NCBI GenBank assembly: GCA_951406725.2
Contig: OX597822.1
Location: forward strand, 21,204,001 to 21,268,000
Direction of reading: 5' to 3'
Length of the DNA: 64,000 bases
Source: Octopus vulgaris
Taxonomy: Eukaryota
A program made the translations under genes and the position numbers. The notes beneath the pieces were generated by a model, which searched no databases, was not told the origin of the DNA, and saw only the letters and a program-made list of their open reading frames with translations. This document shows, piece by piece, positions 4,566 through 62,717 of this stretch (the first letter of the stretch is position 1; every line of letters starts with the position of its first letter).

Positions 4566-4712
4566 ACATTCGAAGCTTTCTTCCAGGGGATCTAATGCGC
4601 ATGGCTTAGATTTCCCTTGGCGGGCTGCCCATATCGGAGCAATCTCAAGATTAATCAGCCGAAATTGCTAAGATGATCTGGTTCTTGACTGATGACTGAG
4701 GGCTTCGAATGT
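4566..4712 (+). ncRNA. Rearranged (non-circularly permuted) hammerhead ribozyme, copy 1
   Basis: P1 4566-4580/4698-4712; P2 4583-4620; II ggctg 4623-27/cagcc 4656-60; III agcaa 4638-42/ttgct 4665-69; AUC cut after 4644; I tcaaga 4645-50/tcttga 4683-88; GAAA 4661-64; CTGATGA 4689-95. Confidence 0.7.
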
Positions 4713-4790: not shown

Positions 4791-8452
<3,662 letters not shown>

Positions 8453-28101: not shown

Positions 28102-29002
28102 ACAATTTAATAAATAAAATATATGCATACATACATACATATATGCATGTAACTACATCTATATGTATATATACATGGATATGACTGAGCGCCTCGCGTC
28201 ATTTCGTTTCTTATCCTCCAAGTAAGTTTTTATATATAATTATGACGCGCACTCTCTAACCCTTTACTTGACCTTTCCTTCCTTCCTGTCTGTCTTCCTC
28301 TCTACCTGTCTCTCTCCTTATTTTTCACCCTTTCTGGTTTCCTTTCCTCTCTATCTCTCTCTCTCCCACTCCCTCCTCTCTCTCACTGCTGAGTGGACTA
28401 CTAACTTTCTTTTGCTCATAGCTTTCAACAAGTCAACATTGACTTTTTCTGTCTCTGGCAAGTCGATTCTGAATTGCGCTCCAACGAATTTTTCCACCGT
28501 CTAGGCTTAAAAAAGCCCTCAATGTTGGTTTCATTGTCCTGTTTTTATTCTTTATGTGTACTGTATTTTCATTCGTATTGCTTTTACGTCCTGTTCTTGT
28601 CACTTTTTTTTCCTTGTTTTACCCCTCTGCAAAGGAATTTTATTTAATTCATTTTGCAGGAAGGATTGCTTTGGCCGGATCATGTTCTGCCCTTACCTTC
28701 GAAACACGCATTGAGTCGAACCAGGGGCAGCTGATGAAGGGGAATATTCCTTGTATTGTTTGTCTTGTACTCTGTTTTTTCGTTGTTAAAAAAAGTCCGT
28801 TTCCTTGTTAGTTTTTATGTTTTCGTTTCTCATTGTGTTCTACATTTATTAGTGGTGTCCTGTAATTATATATATATATGCATGTATATATACATATAGA
28901 TGTAGGTACGTACATATATGTATGTATGCATATATCTTATTTATTAAATTGTTATTATATGACTGAGCGCCTCGTGTCATTTCGTTTCTTATCCTCCAAG
29001 TA

Positions 29003-41777: not shown

Positions 41778-41951
41778 TATCGAAAAATACCTTAGGAATG
41801 AAAACCCAGGTTCGAAATTTCACCAAGACACCTGATGAAGGCTGGAGGGTATATCAGTCAAAATGTTGTGTTAACAACAAACAAGATAAAGACAAATATC
41901 CATCAAATGTAAATAATGTACATAATTCCTCATCTCTTAAACATAGAACTG
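41778..41951 (+). mobile_element. Family H hammerhead-bearing unit (degenerate HHR at 41827-41872)
   Basis: Matches 15858-16032. Confidence 0.75.
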
Positions 41952-50900: not shown

Positions 50901-52127
50901 AACTTGTCTGAACCATGAAATAATGAAGAAAGTTATAATGTTGATTGTGATGTTGATAATATTGATTATTTTATTGATTGCAGTTATAGTGAGAGTGATG
51001 ACAATGTGGGTGATGATAATGATGATGGCAGCATTGATAATGAAGAGAAGAAGATGTGGAGGATTATAGTTATTAGAGTAATGTTGAAAATGATGATATT
51101 AGTGGTAGTGATAAAGGAGTGATGAAATCGATAATAATTTTGTTGACAATTATGATAATGGTGGCAGTGGTGGGTATATTGATGAAGTGAACTTAAATGT
51201 ATAGAATTCTGAAAGCTTTTCAAATAACCTGAAAAGCAGTTGTTAATGTCAGCTTGCTAAATACATTTTTGAGGTTTAGATGTTTATGTAAATCATATCT
51301 GAAGATTAATAGTGGTGAGCTGTAGTAATAGTAGTGATGGAGGAGTTGACCAGATACAACATATGGTTGGCAAGTTTCTTTTTATTACAGTTATTTATTT
51401 GGTACTGGCTTCAAGTTAAACAACACAAACACTACAATACCATCACAAAGATTCTATCCTTCCCACTCATTTAAGACAATCAGAGTAGGAAATAGAGAAA
51501 ATAGCAGCTGTCACATCAATAACCAACTGAGCCCAGGAGAACAGTAATGTTGCTGCTAACATAGTTTACTTCTATTGTGGTCATTACCAGAGGCTACAAT
51601 AGCAGACTGGACTGAAGGGAAAATGCAGTATTTGCAGTCATGCCATATTGCTCCCCCACACAATAAACCACTGCATGTCAATGTCCTTAACTAGGCAGAA
51701 ATACAGTGTATCTTAAGTGTTGGATATGTAGATTATAGCCAGTTAGCTAACGAGATTAGGGTCTGCTAGATCAATGTGGAATGGTTCTACCCAACAACCA
51801 CAGCTCTTCTAAAGTCAATGACAGAACATCTGTACAGACACTTGGTCAGCTAGAAATAGTAGCCAAATCTCTCAAATCATACCATATTGTCTTAAGGAAC
51901 CTTATATATATATTAGACAATGTATTTCCAGGTCATGTTCACATGGCATAAAATGAATGAATGAAGGAACTTAAAAAAAAAAAATGGGACTGTCACACTT
52001 TCAAAGGCTTTGATCATTGGCTTACTTGATCAATACTGACCTGGGGTTAAACAATAACATCAGCTCTCTTCTCATATAAAACCTATCATCAAATTAACTT
52101 ATACTTAGTAAGTTTAAACAGTGTTTA

Positions 52128-53418
52128 CGAGGGGCGTTCAATAAGTAATGCCCCTGACCCACTTCCCATAGCAGTAGAGCAACGAAACTTGGCACAGTTA
52201 TTAGTCTTTTTCTACATAGGAACCACCCAGAGTTACGCATTTCTCCCATTGCTTGATGCAGCTCTGGAGACCGTTTTTGTAGAAAACCCCAGCTTGGTCC
52301 TCCAACCTGAACGTGACTTCAGAAATCAAGGCTGCATCATCTGGGAAACGCTTTCCTTTCAAAAACAACTTCATGACTGGGAAGAGGTGAAAATCAGAGG
52401 GTGCAAGGTCAGGAAAGTAGGGGGGATGGGGGAGGAGTTCATAGCCATACGCCTGTGCTTCTGATCTGGTGACAAGCGAGTTGTGGACCGGAGCGTTGTC
52501 CTGCAGGAGGAGGATGCCTTTGCTGATCTTGCCCCGCCTCTTGATTTTGATAACTTCTCTTAATTTCCTCAAAAGTGAAGCATAATAGGCTCCTGCAATT
52601 GTGGTACTCTTTGCCAGGAAATCTGTCATCACTACTCCGTCCTGGTCCCAGAAGACTGTGAGCATGACCTTGCCAGCGGAGGGCTGCACCCTTGCCTTCT
52701 TTGGAGGGGGTGAGTCACGGTGCTTCCACTGCATTGACTGGGCTTTGGTCTCTGGATCATCGTGATGGACCCAGGTTTCATCCTGTGTAATCAGTCTTTT
52801 GAAAAATTTTGACTCATCTTCTTGGCACATCTCCAAATTCACCCTCGAGCACTCGACGCGTTCTTGCTTCTGGAAAGGCGTGAGCAACCTGGGAATCCAT
52901 CTGGCAGACACCTTTTGCATATGCAAATGGTCATGAATGATAGTTTCCACAGACCCGGTACTAATCTTGACCTCATGGGCTATTTGACAAATAATTATGC
53001 GTCGATCTTCCAAAATGGCAGCCTCAACTTGACGGACAGATGCCTCATCAATGGCAGAAGGGGCGACCAGATCTGGGAGCTGTTTCCACAGAGTTCCGAC
53101 CATGTTTGAATTCACGATGCCAGCGTTTTACAAGGTCATATGATGGGGCATCATCACCATAAGTTACTTTCATTTCATCAAAAGTTTCCCGTGGTGTGCG
53201 TCCTTTCAAATACAAAAACCGGATCACTGCTCGACACTCAACAGGCTCCATTTCACACTTGACTCTGTTCAAACATCTGTAAATCAGAAACCACAATTAA
53301 TTCAGAGCTGTAATTTACCACTTACTCTGTAGAGATATAAATGATTGCACATGCAAAATTTTAGCTAGATCAAACAACTGCAAGTGGGTCAGAGGCATTA
53401 CTTATTGAACATCCCTCG
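52128..53418 (-). mobile_element. Full-length mariner transposon, 1291 bp
   Basis: 37-bp TIRs (cgaggggcgttcaataagtaatgcccctgacccactt, 3 mismatches), TA duplication on both sides. Confidence 0.97.
52201..53251 (-). pseudogene. DD34D mariner transposase (irritans-like), single frameshift near 53062
   Basis: WIPRLL, ITQDETW, LQDNAPVH, YFPDLAPSD with 34-residue D-D spacing; N-terminal HTH (MEPVEC..RSGRP) in another frame. Confidence 0.93.
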
Positions 53419-54828
53419 TATAGTGGTCACTCAACAATATCATCATCATAACCATTATCAAATTTCTCATTATAATTGAAGGAATCAAATTTGTCCCCTC
53501 AGTTTTGACTCTTTAGTTAGAGTTGGAGGCACTTTTCTTATTTGATGTCATTAGCAAATCATAAAAATCCTTGAAACCCCATCTCAATTTCCTGATGACC
53601 ACCTTACTTTCTGTCCTCTTGGGCTCAGTAACATTAAGATCCCACATTAAAATTAGTGGACTGGTCAATAGAAAAGCTAAGCAGAAACCCATCTGCTGGG
53701 AGTATAAATTTTTTTTTATCAAACTAGAGGACCCTTGACATGTTTCTATCTTATTCTAACATCCACATTTTTAACTGTACTTGACAAAGTTATTGTGTTG
53801 GGAATCTATTTATTATTGTGAGAAAACAGAATCGTTTTGAGATGAGATAATTCAATTACCATCTGAATGAAAAACAGTAATTAAGTTAATGTTAACAAAT
53901 CCAATAGAGAAAACATCAAAAACAAATATAAACTATGGATATTTATTATGTTTGTTCTTATTGCTGTCTAATCCATATATTAAAGTTAAATACTTTGCTA
54001 CAGAGTTTGTCTTTGTTTACATTTGTCTAGTGTTAAATATATTCAAAAAAGAATCTGTAATATATTTGTATTAATACTATTTTCTGTTGTGCTAGAAAAT
54101 TTTATTGTTGTTGTTGTAGGTAATATTATTAAAAAGTCTAAGGCGTTGAGCTGGCAGCATCGTTTGTACACTGGGCTAAATGCTTAGTGGCATTTTCTCT
54201 GTTCTTACATTCTGAGTTCAGATGTCACCAAGGTCATCTTTGCTTTTAACCCTTTGGGGGTCGATAAAATAAGTACCAGTTGGGCACTGGGGTCAAGGTA
54301 ATTGACTTATCCCCTCCCCTGAAACTGCTGGATTGAAAAGTCTTTAAAATAGGGTTTACCCATCACTCACAAGTGAGAAAGTTTTTGATAAATATTTTTT
54401 GGTGCCTATGTAGTCTAGAGAAAATATAGTCACACTCTCAGGCTTACCACACTTGAGGTAACAGAACAAGGATGTGACAACTGGAGGGAGAGAAAGCTGC
54501 GCCATTATTGGGACAGGTACTCATTTACAACTGAGCAGACTGGGCAATGTGCAATGATATGCCTTGCCAAAGAACACAAAATGTCACTCAGCCCAAGAAG
54601 CAAACCCAAAACTTTTGTTCAACATTTTAACTACTAGACCATGTGCCGTCACTAGTGATATCATTATTATAATTATTATATTATAAGGCACTGAGCTGGT
54701 AGAATTGTTAGCATGAACAAAACACTTACTGGCATTCTGTCCATCTTTAGATTTCAGTATAACCAACAACCCCTCTCTCCTAAAATTTCAGTTTTTGTGC
54801 CTATAGTAGAAAGGATTATTATTATTAT

Positions 54829-55288
54829 TCAGTAGTATATTTTTTATAGCGTGCTTTCACTTCACTACCGAGCGCAGCTCTGTGTGCCTTGGGTATGTGC
54901 TGTGATTTGTTGTGATGCTCTAATGGTTACTGTATGGTAAGGGTTCTGCGTAGGATGTGGGCAGTGCCTAGTGGTGCAATTTTCTGTGTTATATGTGTTT
55001 GTAAGTCCTGGTGTTTTTGTTATGTATTTGTCTGAATATTTTTTTTATCATGCCTAATGCACCTATTACGATAGGAATTGTTTCTGTTTTTAGATTCCAC
55101 ATTCTGATTACCTCTATTTCCAGGTCTTTGTATTTTGAAAGTTTCTCCATTTCTTTTAGAGACACGTTGTCATCTGCTGGTATTGATACATCAATTAGAA
55201 AGCATTTTTTTTCTTCATGATCTCTGACAACTATATCTGGTCTGTTGGCCTTAATTTCTCTATCTGTGTGTATTGGCATATCCCAGTA
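54829..55288 (-). mobile_element. R4/Dong-type LINE 3' end (restriction-like endonuclease + 3' UTR)
   Basis: NRPDIVV..FLIDVSIP..EKLSKYKDL PD-(D/E)xK-type motif; 3' end runs into (TAA)n. Confidence 0.88.
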
Positions 55289-55337
55289 TTCTTCTTCTTC
55301 TCTTTCTTCTTCTTCTTCTTCTTCTTATTATTATTAT

Positions 55338-55551
55338 CAAGGTGATGAGCTGACAGAATTGTTAGTGCACTGGACGAAATGCTTAGTGGTATTTCGCCTG
55401 TTACTATGTTCTCTGTTCAAATTCTGCTGAAGTCAATTTTGTCTCTCATCCTTTCAAAATCGATAAATTAAGTATTAGTGAAATACTGGGGTCAATGTAA
55501 TCGACTTATCAACTATCTCAAAATTGCTGTCCTTGTGGCAAAATTTAAAAC

Positions 55552-55584
<33 letters not shown>

Positions 55585-57350
55585 AGCATTGAGCTGGCAG
55601 AACTGTTATCATGCTGGGCAAAATGCGTAATTGCATTTCATCCATCCTTATGTTCTGAGTTCAAATTCCACCCAAGGTTGACTTTGCCTTTCATCCTTTT
55701 GGGACCAATGAAATAAGTACCAGTTATGCACTGGGGTTGATGTGGTCAACTAGCCCCTCCCACCAATGATTTCAGGCCTTGTGTCTATAGTAGAAAGGAT
55801 TATTATTATTATTACTGTTATTATTTTTATTTGCTCATCACTATGTTGTGGGTTCAAATTTTGCTCAGGTTTACCTTGCCTTTGATCTTTTTGGGGTTGA
55901 TAAGTTAAGTACCAGTGAAACACTGGGATTGATATAATTGACTACTCTCTTCCCTATAAAATTTCAGGCCTTGTACCTTCAATTGAAAGGATTATTATTA
56001 TTATATATGAAGCAACAGGCTGGCAGAATCATTAGCACACTAGACAAAATGCCACTAAGCATTTTGTCTGTCTTTACATTCTGAGTTCAAATTCCACTGA
56101 AGTTGACTTTGCCTTTCATCCTTTCAGGGTCAATAAATTAAGTGCCAGTGAAACATTGGGGTCGATGTAATGGACCAGTCCTCTTCCACCAAATTTCAGA
56201 CCTTGTACCTTTAGGAGAAAGGCTCATTATTATAATAATAATTCTTCTTCTTCTTCTTCTTCTTCTTCTTCTTCTTCTTCTTCTTCTTCTTCTTTAAGGT
56301 GGTGAACTGACAAAATCATTAATACACTTGGCAAAATGCTTAGTAGCATTTTGTCCATCTTTACATTTTGAATTTTGCCAAGGTTGACTTTGCCTTTCAT
56401 CCTTTTGGCATCGATAAACCAAGTAGTAGCTGAAAACTAAAGTTGGTGTAATCAAATTAGCCCCTCACCTGAATTTGCTGGCCTCATCCCAAAATTTGAA
56501 ATCATTATCATCATCATTATTATTTTTAAGGTGGTGAGTATGCTGGGCAAAATGCTTAGCAGTATTTTGTCTGTTGCTATGTTCTGAGTTCAAATTCCAC
56601 TGAGGTCGACTTTGCCTTTCATCCATTCGGGGTTGATAAATTAAGTACCAGCCAAGTACTGGGTTCAGTGGGATCAATTGTCCTCCTCCCCACAAAAATC
56701 AAAGCGTTGTGCCTATAGTAGAAAGGATTATTATTATTTTTATATCAGTTGTCATGATAAATCATTAGTCACTACACACATTTTTTTTCTCTCTCCTTGT
56801 TTTTTCTGTGTCCCTTTCTGTAGAAGAGCGTAGGCTCGAAACGTAAAAGACTTTTTCTGTTCCTGAGCGTTATACTAATACATCTGTTTGTTTTGCACAC
56901 CACCTCTCTTCGTCTTTTGTTTCTTTCATAAACTCTCCTTATTATTATCATAGTTTCATATAAGGTGGTGAGCTTGCAGAGTCATTTGCATGCCGGATAA
57001 AATGCTTAGCAATGTTTTGTACATATTTACATTCTGAGTTCAAATGCCGCTGGGGTTAACTTTGCCATTTATCCTTTTGGGTTTGATAAAATAAGCACCA
57101 ATTGAACACTGAGTTATCCCCTTCCCCAAAATTACTGGCGTTGTGTCAAAATTTGAAATCCTTACTAATTATAAAAGAAAGAAAGCAGAGGACAAAATGC
57201 CATGCAATATTTAGTTACAGCTTATGTTATGAGTTTAAATCCTTCTATGTTCAACTTTTTCTTTTATCATTTGAGGTCCAACAAAATCAAATACCAATCA
57301 AATACTGAGATCAATTCGATCTGCTGACTCCTGCTCACAAAATTGTTGCC
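55338..57350 (+). repeat. Head-to-tail cluster of about 8 SINE family A copies separated mostly by (TTA)n/(TTC)n
   Basis: Copies start at ~55338, 55582, 55840, 56010, 56295, 56527, 56961 and 57180; also 54140 and 54685. Confidence 0.85.
56814..56849 (+). ncRNA. Minimal hammerhead variant (CTGTAGAA core) in a short pLTR-like element (56765-56938)
   Basis: cttt-CTGTAGAA-gagc gtag gctc-GAAA-CG-TA-aaag; ACGT palindrome; A6 replaced by U. Confidence 0.55.
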
Positions 57351-57444
57351 CTGTTCATATATTCTTAATGATACTCTTGTTATTGTCACTGTTACTATAA
57401 AATGTAGTAAAAATGGTAGTGTCACAAAATAAATTTCTTCTTTT

Positions 57445-57842
57445 ATCATTTACTTGCTTCACTCATTAATTAGACTGGGGCCATGCTAAGGTACCACCTT
57501 GAAGAATTTTAGTCGAACAAATCAATCCCAATATTTATTTCTTTTTCATTATTCAAACCTGATATTAATTCTATCAGTCTCTTTTACCAGGCTGCTAAGT
57601 TACGGGGACATAAACACATCAACGTCGTTGCCAAACAGTGATGGAGGAAAACACGCACACACACACACACACACACACTCACATGGAAGGCTTCTTTTAG
57701 TTTCCATCTACCAAATCCACTCACAAGGCTTTGGTCAGCCCCAGGCTTTTGCAAAAGATAGCAAGGTGCTATGCAGTGGAACTGAACCTGGAACCATAAG
57801 GATGGAAAGCAAACTTTTTACCACACAGCCATGCTTGTGCCT
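57445..57842 (-). mobile_element. SINE family B
   Basis: Family consensus. Confidence 0.8.
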
Positions 57843-58299
57843 CATAATAACTAGTTATGTTTCTTTAACATAGTAAGCTCAGAACCTGTCAATGCTGGGG
57901 TCAATATTTCATGATTTTGAGTTCATTATAAATAATTATCAATGATATACTGGTAGCTGATTTAATTCATCGTTATCATTGTCATTTTACATTTGCTTTC
58001 CATGCTGGCATAGGGTTAGACAGGTCATCGTAGTCCAAATAATTTCTTATTGGAAACATAATAACTGGCTTTCGTACATATTATTTGGTTTGGTTTCTAC
58101 AGTTTGGTGCCCTTTTTATTGCTAACTGCTTTACTGTATGGTATGCATTTTCTTGTGACATCAAAACCACAGTACTCAGTAACTTAAGTTATGTAGATCA
58201 AGAAAGAGACTTGAAGAAGCAATGAAAGCAGAAACACCAGGAATAGGCTGTTGAGAGGGGAAGTAATAATTAAATATTTCTGGTTTTTGTTGTAAATAT

Positions 58300-58502
58300 C
58301 AGTTTCAAATTTTGGCATTAGGCCAGTAATTTTGAGAGAGGGAGTAAGTTGATTACATCATCCCCAGTGTGCAGCTCTTATATTATTGACCCCCAAGGGG
58401 ATGACAAGCAAGGTTGACCTCAGTGGTATTTGAACTCAGACTGAAGAAATGCTACTAAGCATTTTGCCCAACATGCTAACGATTCTGCCAGCCCACTACC
58501 TT
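58300..58502 (-). mobile_element. SINE family A
   Basis: Family consensus, diverged. Confidence 0.75.
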
Positions 58503-59472: not shown

Positions 59473-59833
59473 ACACACACACGAGCACACACACAATGAT
59501 TATTTTAAAACATGTTTGTTGTTTATTATATCAATGGAGAACAATGGAATGGTAGAAACATAAACAAAGTGGACTAAATATATGAAAAATAATTACATTT
59601 CTCCAGCTACATTCTTGATTGAAGATTGATTTTTACGTTTACCCTTTGGTATGATGACTTTTGAAAGACATAAATAACAATTCTGACTGATGCTGTATTA
59701 ACAGCAATTTACAATCAACTGTCAAATTGTAAAACACTGCCATCACAAGACTTATATGTACATGTGTAGGAATTACAACCGTGTTTCATGGTCTGCTACC
59801 ACAACAGCTCCTTTATAGGATCCAGTTAGCTCT

Positions 59834-59920
59834 AGACATCATCAGGAGGAACCACGTCCGGTTTCGGCCCCTACACCTCTACCGTTTTGACGTGGCGGGT
59901 GCCCCCTTTTGGAGGTGTCT
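59834..59920 (-). ncRNA. Rearranged hammerhead ribozyme, copy 3, in a GC-rich element (~59765-60310)
   Basis: On -: agaca(P1) cc tcc aaaa ggg(P2) ggcaccc(II) g ccacgtc aaaa cgg(III') TA gagg(I) tgta ggggcc(II') GAAA ccg gacgtgg(III) tt cctc(I') CTGATGA tgtct(P1'); GUA cut between 59880 and 59879. Confidence 0.7.
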
Positions 59921-62717
59921 TCAGCTCTGGTGCTGGGTGCATGTCTTCTTTCTTCTGTTCCCTGGCCTCTTCGATGTATCATCAGTGAGTGTCAGTCGGT
60001 GACTGACTGACTTGTCAAATTTTTCCCGTTAAATACCCGCTGCTAGGCTCCAGCAGGCAGCCCCAGCAAGTTGTCACATGACACTGTCTCACCTTAACTG
60101 ACTAGTGAAGGCGTGTAGTTTTAGCCCATGCTTTTTCTAAATGACCGTCACCTGTCAGCCAGCGAAGCTGATTCAGTCAGCTTGTCTCACCTAATAATGT
60201 TATTTCCCGTTGGCATGTTTATGACTTTCAAGCCATTTTCGGTCTTCCCGCTTCAGCTATATATAGAAGTTGGCTTTTTCAACCGCCTCCTGTACTCTCC
60301 TTATTAGTTTATGCAGCTCAGGGCTAGAAAAAACAAATCTTATGTGTGTGTGTGTGCTTGGTGCAGGTATGTGGCTTAGTGACTACAGTTTGGAGCTCAT
60401 GTTCATTAGATTTTGGGTTCAATTCTCAGCTTAGGAAGCACATTGTATCCTTGAACATGGCACATTTTCATGTTGTCTAAGTCCTCTCAAGTGAAAATTA
60501 GTACCAGTGGGTACTTGTAAGCAACTCTGTGACAAACTAGTATCCCATTCAGAGGATGGTCCTGTATACTCTGTTGCCTAAAGGTCTTTGAATTCTGGAT
60601 AGGATTAGCCCACTTGAGCCTTTATGCTTGAAGCAAAGTTTAACAAACAGTCTGTGTGTGCATGTGTGTGTGTGCGTGTGTGTATGTGTGTGTGTGAACT
60701 GTTTGAACTTATTTCACTGAACCAGTAAGCTCTTCTATCATTTTACATATTCATACTTTATGTAGTTGTTAAATATGTGTATGTCTATGAGCAATTTGTT
60801 AACTGTATGTTTGTATATGAAATGTACACATATTTGGAATATATATAGGTGTGTGTGTGTGTAGTGAAAAAGTTTGTGTGTGAATTTAATACTCATACAT
60901 TTAGCTCCACTGTTTGCATAGATTATATGATTAAATCTTGGGGTTCTTTCTGCAGATGAACAACTTGACTAGTTTTCTCTGGCTGCAATAATTCTTTAGC
61001 TTGATCTTCTGGGAAGGCATTGTCATTAAACCATAGTGTTTATTTGCACAACAAAGCTGATTGTTTGAGTGTGTGTGTGTGTGGGGGGGGTAAAATGAAC
61101 ATGAAATCAAATGAACAAATATATAATGAAATTTTGATACAGAATTTTATTATTTGCAATCTTGTATATATATTAGAACAAACATAATATCCTATGGTCA
61201 GTGGTTCGATTTTTTTTTTTTTATGACAAAAAATATTAGTGTTATGCTAAATATCTTGAATGTAGTTTCTCCCCATCAAAGTTAACTTTGGCTTTCAGTC
61301 ATACTATGACAAGAACCAGTCTTGTATTGGATCATTTCAATTTGTGATACCTTGTTACATAGGTTTGTGACCTTCAGTCAGAATTAGATCTTGCTTGGAC
61401 TTTGTAGCAAATGTAATTCCTCTCGTGTTGCATATTGGAAATTGAGAAATTTGCAAATTGCAATTGCTGAAATTTTATCCTGTGCCTTTATTTGTAGTAA
61501 TGGTTTGTGTATTCTATCAAATGACTGCAAAGTAGTAGTTAGGTTTTTTTAAATTGGCAGTAATCTCTGTAGGCTACTCTGAATCCTTTTGAGATTGGTT
61601 TCTTATCCTTAATGTTTTAGAAAACTTCAGCGGGGTGAAAGTCATCATTCTTGGCTATTTCTTAAGCTGTTTTATAGGCAATGATTGTAGAAATGTCACT
61701 TGCATTTAATATGGCTAATTAGTAGAGCCTGAAATGAGATTACAAAATTATGGTTAAATCAGAAGGGTTCCTCTATAATTATTACACAACAAGAAAACAT
61801 ATTTGATCCAGTATTATAAGAAACATTAACATGTATTGGAAACAAAAAGATGCTTATTCTCTGCTAATATTTTGAGTACTGTATTTTCTGGCATTCAAAC
61901 TGACATAGCTTATAGTGTAAATACTCAAATATCATCACTATCTTTTCAAATTCTGCTGTATTTCACTTGGAATTTTTGGTCCTCCAAAGTCATCATGATG
62001 TGTAAGTCAACATACCTGTTTTAACTGTAAATTTTAGTCTGAAAACTTTGACTCAGAAATATGGTATATGTCTTGTACCACTTTTATAGCCACCATCATA
62101 TATAAGGAAGTATATGTGTGAACACATATTGCGTTCTATTGTTTGTGTAACTGATTAAGTTTCACATACATATTATACAAGATAACACTGGAAAACTGAC
62201 TCCACCTACTTGAACAATTTTGGACTCACCAAACAGAACTTACAAGGAAATATTCAAACTACCAAATCAATGTAAAAAGTGGCAACAAACAGTGGCATAT
62301 AATTTTTTAATGATTGAATATGTTAGATAATCAGAATGGTAGCTGACACTTGGAATATTCTACAACATTTTAGATACACTTTATTGATTTTAAGAGGCTT
62401 CTGGTGATTATTAATATTTTCAAAAGAAAATTTTCATAAACATTTGCTCTATTGAATATATTTTAAACATTCCTAATTAATTTCTTATTTTAATTTAGAT
62501 AATTTAATACAGTTAAATAAATATATAAAGCGTGCAATACTGTTTGTTTCAAAAATTTTTCCCCTAAAGATTTCCTAGTAATTTTTAATAATTTTACTGA
62601 TTAAATTTGGATATAAAATTGTTCATTTAAATCTGCCTCTAGTTCTTGTTCGATCAGGAAATATTTTGCAACTATTGCAGCAGATTATGCTGCAAAATAC
62701 TGTCTCTTTCTCTTTTG

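Follow-up and report, generated by a model that had tools for sequence, protein, structure and literature searches.

Retrozymes are non-coding and 150-400 nt long, and animal non-LTR retrozymes were reportedly treated by Cervera in 2020. The hammerheads closest to the motif considered here are those of type SGC, related examples of which cleave at 0.007-0.19 per min and whose block C was assumed to be uninterruptible (Eckert 2023, PMC10085705; here and below, what is said of a cited paper refers to the accessible part of its text). Among Penelope-like elements, the Naiad 'half core' cases, in which the second half lies 35-50 nt away, were left unexplained (Craig 2021, PMC8557442), and in a Penelope element hammerhead cleavage was dispensable, unprocessed RNA being the main template in vitro (PMC11167929). 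A HERO clade has also been described (PMC7650587).

Here we describe a motif on the minus strand of a 64,000-nt stretch of Octopus vulgaris DNA (assembly GCA_951406725.2, contig OX597822.1, positions 21,204,001 to 21,268,000), hereafter the window, in whose numbering all coordinates are given. A search of the openly accessible literature returned no description of the split wiring reported below or of a hammerhead in a HERO element.

Anatomy and host of the window copy

Reading the minus strand letter by letter, we found the motif described in an earlier note on this DNA to be present throughout. Its 87-nt core is enclosed, as read directly from the sequence, by P1 (59920-59916/59838-59834), and the linkers of 1, 4 and 2 nt, the stem III of 3 bp, AAAA and 7 bp, and the extension of P1 to 59930/59822 were likewise borne out on this strand; stem III additionally counts the pair A15.1-U16.1. 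That note overlooked both the LINE host and the split between CUGAUGA and stem II. The parts of the locus are as follows.

60341-59767, minus: 5'-truncated family A LINE copy with broken last ORF codons, 3' UTR, ribozyme motif and tail, from alignment to a long copy
59916..59930, minus: P1 5' strand and extension (P1 proper, 59920-59916)
59904..59915, minus: P2 hairpin, weakened (loop AAAA, G run shortened)
59897..59903, minus: stem II 5' strand, upstream of the cleaved strand, mutated (3 bp, A.G, 2 bp)
59889..59895, minus: distal stem III 3' strand, 7 bp
59885..59888, minus: A4 bulge on the cleaved strand, likely hinge
59880..59884, minus: proximal stem III 3' strand (CGG, 59884-59882) and U16.1-A17 (UA, 59881-59880)
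59876..59879, minus: stem I 5' strand, 4 bp here
59852..59871, minus: block G, comprising the II 3' strand (59871-59866), GAAA (59865-59862) and the III 5' strand (59861-59852)
59839..59849, minus: stem I 3' strand (59849-59846) and CUGAUGA (59845-59839), followed by P1 and not by stem II
59822..59838, minus: P1 3' strand and extension
59767..59821, minus: tail, from family comparison

The 1-nt linker lies between the stem II 5' strand (59903-59897) and the stem III 3' strand (59895-59889) on the minus strand, the 4-nt linker between the stem I 5' strand (59879-59876) and the stem II 3' strand (59871-59866), and the 2-nt linker between the III 5' strand (59861-59852) and the I 3' strand (59849-59846). 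By analogy with the hammerhead core, the RNA is predicted to be cut after 59880 (GUA) on the minus strand. The first CUGAAGA (59924-59918) was considered as the catalytic strand and rejected, as it lies inside P1 and has no stem I ahead of it. Within the tail, 59793-59779 (minus strand) is a near-copy of the stem III 3' strand, which could pair with the III 5' strand after the 5' product leaves and is possibly a switch or priming signal.

The copy had been called the most compact of three, and its distance from the start of II to A9 is indeed 65 nt, compared with 73 and 78 in the window's other two copies; for family A this distance is 64 nt, the shortest among 35 motifs when one mis-picked row (L165, 62) is set aside. 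By itself, the window copy is weak evidence, because its nested fold reached a z of only -2.28 (4 of 200 shuffles) and an Rfam scan of the whole window at E<=1 gave no hammerhead match, returning only microsatellite-driven miRNA matches. Its family and relatives put the motif far beyond chance.

A DNA search of the octopus's own genome (2.8 Gb) yielded 2386 first-look candidates, of which 40 were scored; apart from the window itself, these are at 90-94% identity. These family A copies have a common 3' end and variable 5' truncation points, and the longer ones carry an upstream ORF with an RT (RVT_1, E 8e-22), a zinc knuckle and a PD..LELTVPWEEN nuclease stretch. The best PDB matches of the protein were R2 proteins, with the nuclease stretch aligned only weakly. 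One ORF encoding an RT, a zinc knuckle and, at its C terminus, a PD..D/E nuclease, the motifs being read from sequence, places the element, 3.7-3.9 kb in its coding form, in the R2 superfamily (RLE). The stretch in the window is the decayed 3' end of such an RT and restriction-like-endonuclease LINE, with nearly all of the ORF lost. We provisionally take this host to be HERO-like; HERO elements are not known to have target-sequence specificity, and the flanks of insertions, unrelated in 30 + 30 loci, match that property. A scan of viral contigs with the element protein gave no match. The same genome holds a second family, B, in which the strands of stem II are swapped, the linkers are 1/3/1 and an 11-bp stem III surrounds a 6-nt bulge. 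Family B is young, several of its copies (L084-L093) having open full-length ORFs with a divergence of <0.5%, and was likely active recently.

Intact family A has a 6-bp stem II, a 5-bp stem I, linkers of 1, 3 and 1 nt and a P2 loop that is mostly GAAA. Private to the window copy are a 4-bp stem I, a stem II of 3 bp, an A.G mismatch and 2 bp, and linkers of 4 and 2 nt, which are decay. Because of these private changes in stems I and II and the linkers, the window copy fails our motif scan, which the other two motifs of the window (4689 and 28731) pass, with 0 hits in 10 shuffles. Among 152 copies perfect from distal III to P1, 24 are perfect from the II 5' strand to P1; this strand is by far the most damaged part, mainly through C losses and longer G runs. 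The G/C run between P2 and stem III (59906-59897 in the window) is hypermutable, the head and tail of one insertion (L034) differing there, and family B also shows growth of the G run at this place; RT slippage at the junction, or assembly error, is a possible source. The window copy had been put forward as the best structural target, a choice that the family comparison does not support, since it is a decayed copy with damage in stems I and II, and the genome contains 24 copies whose core is intact. A relative with a kink-turn, or the young family B, is easier to fold, and structural work is better done on an intact copy of family A or B with a kink-turn relative alongside. The window copy is likely slow or dead, and from its sequence we would put detectable cutting at a little under an even chance.

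Self-BLAST and a repeat search revealed no second family A copy in the window, and the other two motifs belong to unrelated families. An unrelated short repeat at 4614-4702 (+) has the same split wiring; its stem III contains a kink-turn, and a 2-nt link replaces P2. A third family with the same wiring, a long P2 and a kink-turn-like stem III is represented at 28620-28745 (+), within a direct repeat at 28200 and 28978; it gave 2952 first-look candidates and no convincing ORF within 1.5 kb in 20 loci. At 41832-41870 (+), CUGAUGA with a short stem II stands in canonical order, presumably an ordinary Penelope-type type I hammerhead. A SINE-like repeat forms a cluster at 54100-58500 of the window, with no fewer than eight decayed copies, one of them inverted. 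Long inverted repeats at 1579-1747, 5636-5820 and 52126-53420 comprise a pair of hairpin elements and a 1.3-kb element bounded by terminal inverted repeats of 39 nt; these are likely the remains of DNA transposons.

Conservation of the wiring and of the probable stem III hinge

Relatives came from metagenome loci encoding related proteins, the best 80 of 302 being used; of these 80, 37 cover the ORF end and a further 250 nt. The wiring was present in the sense 3' UTR of 27 of these 37. Over all of the best 80 of the 302 loci, the motif scan, which itself required CUGANGA, GAAA and NUH, gave 34 sense and 0 antisense motifs, with 0 in 20 shuffles of 268,768 bases. The strict scan did not detect ten of the 37 (again within the best 80 of 302 loci). 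L120, L123 and L160 have variant cores with C3U, L144 and L118 fall just below threshold or are ambiguous, and L163 has an insertion; L135, L138, L139 and L190 showed no motif by eye in the 3' stretch inspected, L138 and L139 having one elsewhere in the contig. C3U occurs in three to four relatives (L119, L120, L123, L160), two of them also with G8A.

A sequence-only MAFFT alignment of 30 rows (28 metagenome motifs, the window copy and family B) had 97.0% of cells paired in stems I and proximal III, and 7 of 8 pairs there changed on both sides. For a subset of 14 rows sharing a single length class, also aligned by sequence only, 94.5% of cells were paired, compared with 29-43% in slid controls, and two-sided changes occurred at 22 of 30 pairs, including II, distal III and P2; the rows of these alignments are kin, so the figures are not probabilities. 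In the script tallies, stems I, II and proximal III were selected for pairing, and counts drawn from the automatic picks of P2 and the II 5' strand, which were wrong in several rows, are approximate. The three crossing stems proposed earlier thus find support, as every stem covaries in relatives, and the fold is almost certainly real.

CUGANGA, GAAA and NUH are all present, as in hammerheads. N7 of CUGANGA is free (U 18, C 9, A 7 and G 1 in 35 motifs), and the cut triplets of these motifs are GUC (15), GUU (11), GUA (7), AUA (1) and AUC (1), with no G at H. G10.1-C11.1 with the upstream II strand is kept in 34 of the 35. The ordinary SGC pairing, with II directly after CUGANGA, was tried and set aside, its first pair failing in 33 of the 35. 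P1 is variable in its first letter among motifs, and the core letters and the C3-G8 pair are conserved between elements whose proteins are ~40% identical. In well-resolved rows P1, P2 and II abut without a spacer; with the core they would form a four-way junction without unpaired letters, leaving II in its usual place.

All 35 motifs, inspected by eye, show an interrupted stem III. A sequence rule that asks for a 3-nt bulge and, next to it, tandem G.A/A.G pairs identified a kink-turn in this stem in 22 of 35 distinct motifs, with the bulge on the GAAA strand. In five others (families A and B, L191, L132, L186) it is the cleaved strand that bulges, and the remainder have other loops. Of 58 family A copies, 49 have precisely AAAA as the bulge, and a kink-turn was looked for in the P1 and stem III of this family and found in neither. 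A bend in stem III looks required, because 22 of the 35 have a kink-turn there and family A has its A4 bulge at the same place. Kink-turn and bulge appear to be interchangeable as hinges, because L191, with a 4-nt bulge, is sister to the kink-turn relative L166 with support 100; the starred branches of this tree (a quick IQ-TREE of 31 rows from tblastn pieces, with L146 and L178 left out and L186 on a long branch) force at least two hinge changes. The A4 bulge is likely a replacement hinge that does the bending job of the kink-turn, and not an accident.

In a number of relatives (L122, L130, L131, L144, L146, L150, L152, L154, L155, L164, L165, L171, L172, L178, L189 and L193) the P2 loop is a palindrome. 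Loops such as UGAUCA, UGGCCA and UGUACA, with paired changes, lie 33-36 nt before the cut, and they look like kissing-dimer signals.

Folding, copying and rival explanations

Closure of the fold was examined in a rigid A-form model with known phosphate values and the sign set by groove widths, which covers the II-to-III link only and assumes II to be stacked on the core. In this model a straight stem III leaves a gap of 55 A for the 1-nt linker. For family A with all pairs formed, the gap is 31-34 A at any bend, compared with a reach of ~11 A, and the link closes only near 100 degrees with about three end pairs frayed; a kink-turn geometry closes it at 140-160 degrees with one frayed pair. The earlier note had suggested either a cage-like closure at a second distal junction or assembly between molecules. 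The closed second junction finds support, and the sharp bend that it calls for stands, favoured by the 22 kink-turns and by the gap left when stem III is straight, but a fully paired cage is unlikely as drawn, because the family A gap stays at 31-34 A until end pairs fray. Assembly between molecules remains a serious rival to a bent and frayed monomer, whose closure is strained in the model; on balance we hold a monomer to be somewhat more likely than a swapped dimer.

Full copies of the element start with a piece of their own 3' end. Family A gave 21 such tail-head junctions. Of the 17 that are independent, 14 begin 44-512 nt before the cut and 3 after it, and none begins at the cut. Where at least 1.3 kb of body is present, 8 of 10 junction copies pass the predicted cut. 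In family B, 7 of 25 loci pass it, and in one of these the read-through extends over 1555 nt, with 99.8% identity to that locus's tail; among the loci that do not pass it, one starts at +26 and the rest further in, none at the cut. The head and tail of L097 share 11 variants, 4 of which are absent from all other of 22 tails. For L033 its own tail is the nearest of 28, for L034 it only ties for nearest to the head, and five young copies are without shared variants by which head and tail could be matched. Most copies end ~111 nt past the predicted cut, just enough to keep P1, and this point is likely an internal start of reverse transcription. Starts exactly at the cut comprise 3 true truncations and 2 deletions ending there, versus 1 at a control position, a weak pile-up of 5' ends. 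In L071 and L073, internal deletions fuse the P2 region directly with the nucleotide that follows the predicted cut. Short tandem duplications covering the ribozyme, with a unit of ~90 nt (L060, L081/L082), possibly arose from a mini-circle or template switching. L198, L202, L204 and L045 have their 5' ends within the P1 5' strand, 44-48 nt before the cut, a pattern that would suit RT stalling at that point. Read-through of the cut would fit a circular or a tandem template, and a circular one seems probable to us.

The explanation we prefer, to which we give slightly better than an even chance as a whole, is that the split-core hammerhead cuts after GUA as a monomer, that A4 bends stem III and that an RNA circle templates new copies. 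It builds on direct observations, namely the anatomy, the host element, the covariation of I, II, III and P2, the core letters and the head repeats that run through the cut. The nested rod of P1, P2 and III would form first, and its apical loop would dock into its own internal loop to give stems I and II, which in family A would need a bend of ~100 degrees and about three frayed end pairs. A transcript with head and tail repeats would be cut twice, after GUA, and the unit-length RNA ligated into a circle by the ribozyme or a host ligase; with reverse transcription then starting ~111 nt beyond the cut, every new copy would retain the whole ribozyme. Judging by their sequences, intact members very probably cleave. 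Against the explanation as a whole, only 24 of the 152 otherwise perfect copies keep the II 5' strand.

The same core and cut could also arise in a strand-swapped dimer of two head-to-tail rods, in which one rod inserts its apical loop (I 5', II 3') into its partner's internal loop (II 5', I 3', CUGAUGA). A transcript with head and tail repeats could supply that partner as its second repeat, and in lineages having palindromic P2 loops, kissing would hold the pair together. Monomer closure is strained in the three bulge-type geometries modelled, and Penelope-associated minimal hammerheads reportedly cleave as dimers, a finding ascribed to Lunse in 2017. The hexamer of the P2 loop is self-complementary in 13 of the 14 subset rows, its middle two letters co-varying (AU 6, GC 6, UA 1); a palindromic hexamer stands at 16 of 33 hairpin tips (shuffled mean 4.0, maximum 10), and only 1 of 18 such hexamers recurs within 400 nt. 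However, the palindrome rows are related, palindromes at 4 of the 16 tips span the closing stem, and the P2 loop of family A is GAAA, which is not a palindrome. Straight rods need no bend, yet stem III is interrupted in 35 of 35 motifs and kinked in 22, and unit-length RNA has only one set of parts. We therefore place the dimer on the unlikely side, as a rival to be taken seriously.

There are two further accounts. The ribozyme may be real but slow or off, the template being either an uncut transcript, longer than one unit and primed internally, or a cut linear RNA across whose ends the RT jumps. No copy that reaches the cut stops there, and the RT of R2 jumps between templates end to end, both of which count for such a template. 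The Penelope element offers a precedent for the uncut transcript (PMC11167929). Head repeats from a linear tandem, however, could only shrink over generations, the head and tail of L097 were made from one template, and the core letters and C3-G8 are kept across the diverged elements described above; we hold this account to be unlikely. That the motif no longer cleaves, serving as a protein-binding or priming signal for the RT, or resembles a hammerhead by chance, we consider very improbable. It does lie where LINE proteins bind their RNA, and block C is broken at a site not known to be open in natural hammerheads, but a CUGANGA with free N7, GAAA, NUH without G and G10.1-C11.1 are all kept, of which the first three were required by the scan. 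Monomeric cutting and copying from a circle thus stay our preferred explanation. More tentatively still, and with considerable doubt, a LINE lineage in many metagenome-sampled hosts may replicate through self-cut, re-closed RNA circles made by a hammerhead whose catalytic strand opens into a four-way junction, with interchangeable hinges and with P2 palindromes that couple cutting to ring closure. If so, the palindromic P2 loops would pair two ribozymes, either those of a head and a tail repeat or those of two RNAs, and an R2-superfamily LINE would be copying from a circle and not from a linear message.

Comparison with known hammerheads and ribozyme-bearing elements

The motif has stems I, II and III, which covary in the relatives, as in hammerheads, stem II being damaged in the window copy. 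Its block order, S-G-C, separates it from types I, II and III (nested CGS, GSC and SCG). That order is the one of type SGC, but block C is not unbroken, since the partner of II lies upstream of block S, and in families A and B the linkers of 1-3 nt leave no room for the extra distal helix between I and II. On its sequence the motif is best seen as a variant hammerhead that would work like type SGC, yet outside that type. What is new is that two extra helices, P1 and P2, separate the CUGAUGA block from stem II. If this is true, hammerhead wiring extends beyond the six permutations counted in the accessible text of Eckert 2023 (PMC10085705), which would account for the failure of descriptor and Rfam searches to find ribozymes in these elements. 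The natural pair of kink-turn and bulge would also make the closure of a second junction in non-circular hammerheads directly testable with RNAs of 65-120 nt.

With type SGC (HRIMA-1) and CSG hammerheads (PMC10085705), the motif has in common the cyclic S-G-C order and crossing stems, a link of ~3 nt from I to II and a 5-bp stem I, and it poses the same puzzle of how distal III reaches the end of I and II. In those, block C is intact, by assumption and in the data, the chain ends lie outside the core and there is an extra I-II helix, whereas here each of the three distal links is closed, P1 and P2 open the chain between A9 and G10.1, and stem III carries a kink-turn or bulge. Their hosts, in the part of that paper accessible, are metatranscriptome and metagenome sequences; here the host is an animal LINE.

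Penelope-like elements with type I hammerheads (PMC8557442, PMC11167929) resemble the present element in that the ribozyme lies near the 3' end, in having partial tandem terminal repeats and in starting reverse transcription internally. Their hammerheads are in canonical order and their proteins of the GIY-YIG kind, unlike the R2-like RT and C-terminal restriction-like nuclease found here. For animal non-LTR retrozymes, hammerhead-cut RNA is thought to circularise and reinsert, but these are non-coding and carry a type I ribozyme (bioRxiv 10.64898/2026.07.22.740005), in contrast to a coding element of several kilobases. R2 with its 5' HDV-like ribozyme is also an RLE-type LINE that defines its unit by self-cleaving RNA, the RNA being cut at the 5' junction with rRNA (PMC3774820); in the element described here, copies instead run through the cut and the hammerhead is kept whole at the 3' end.
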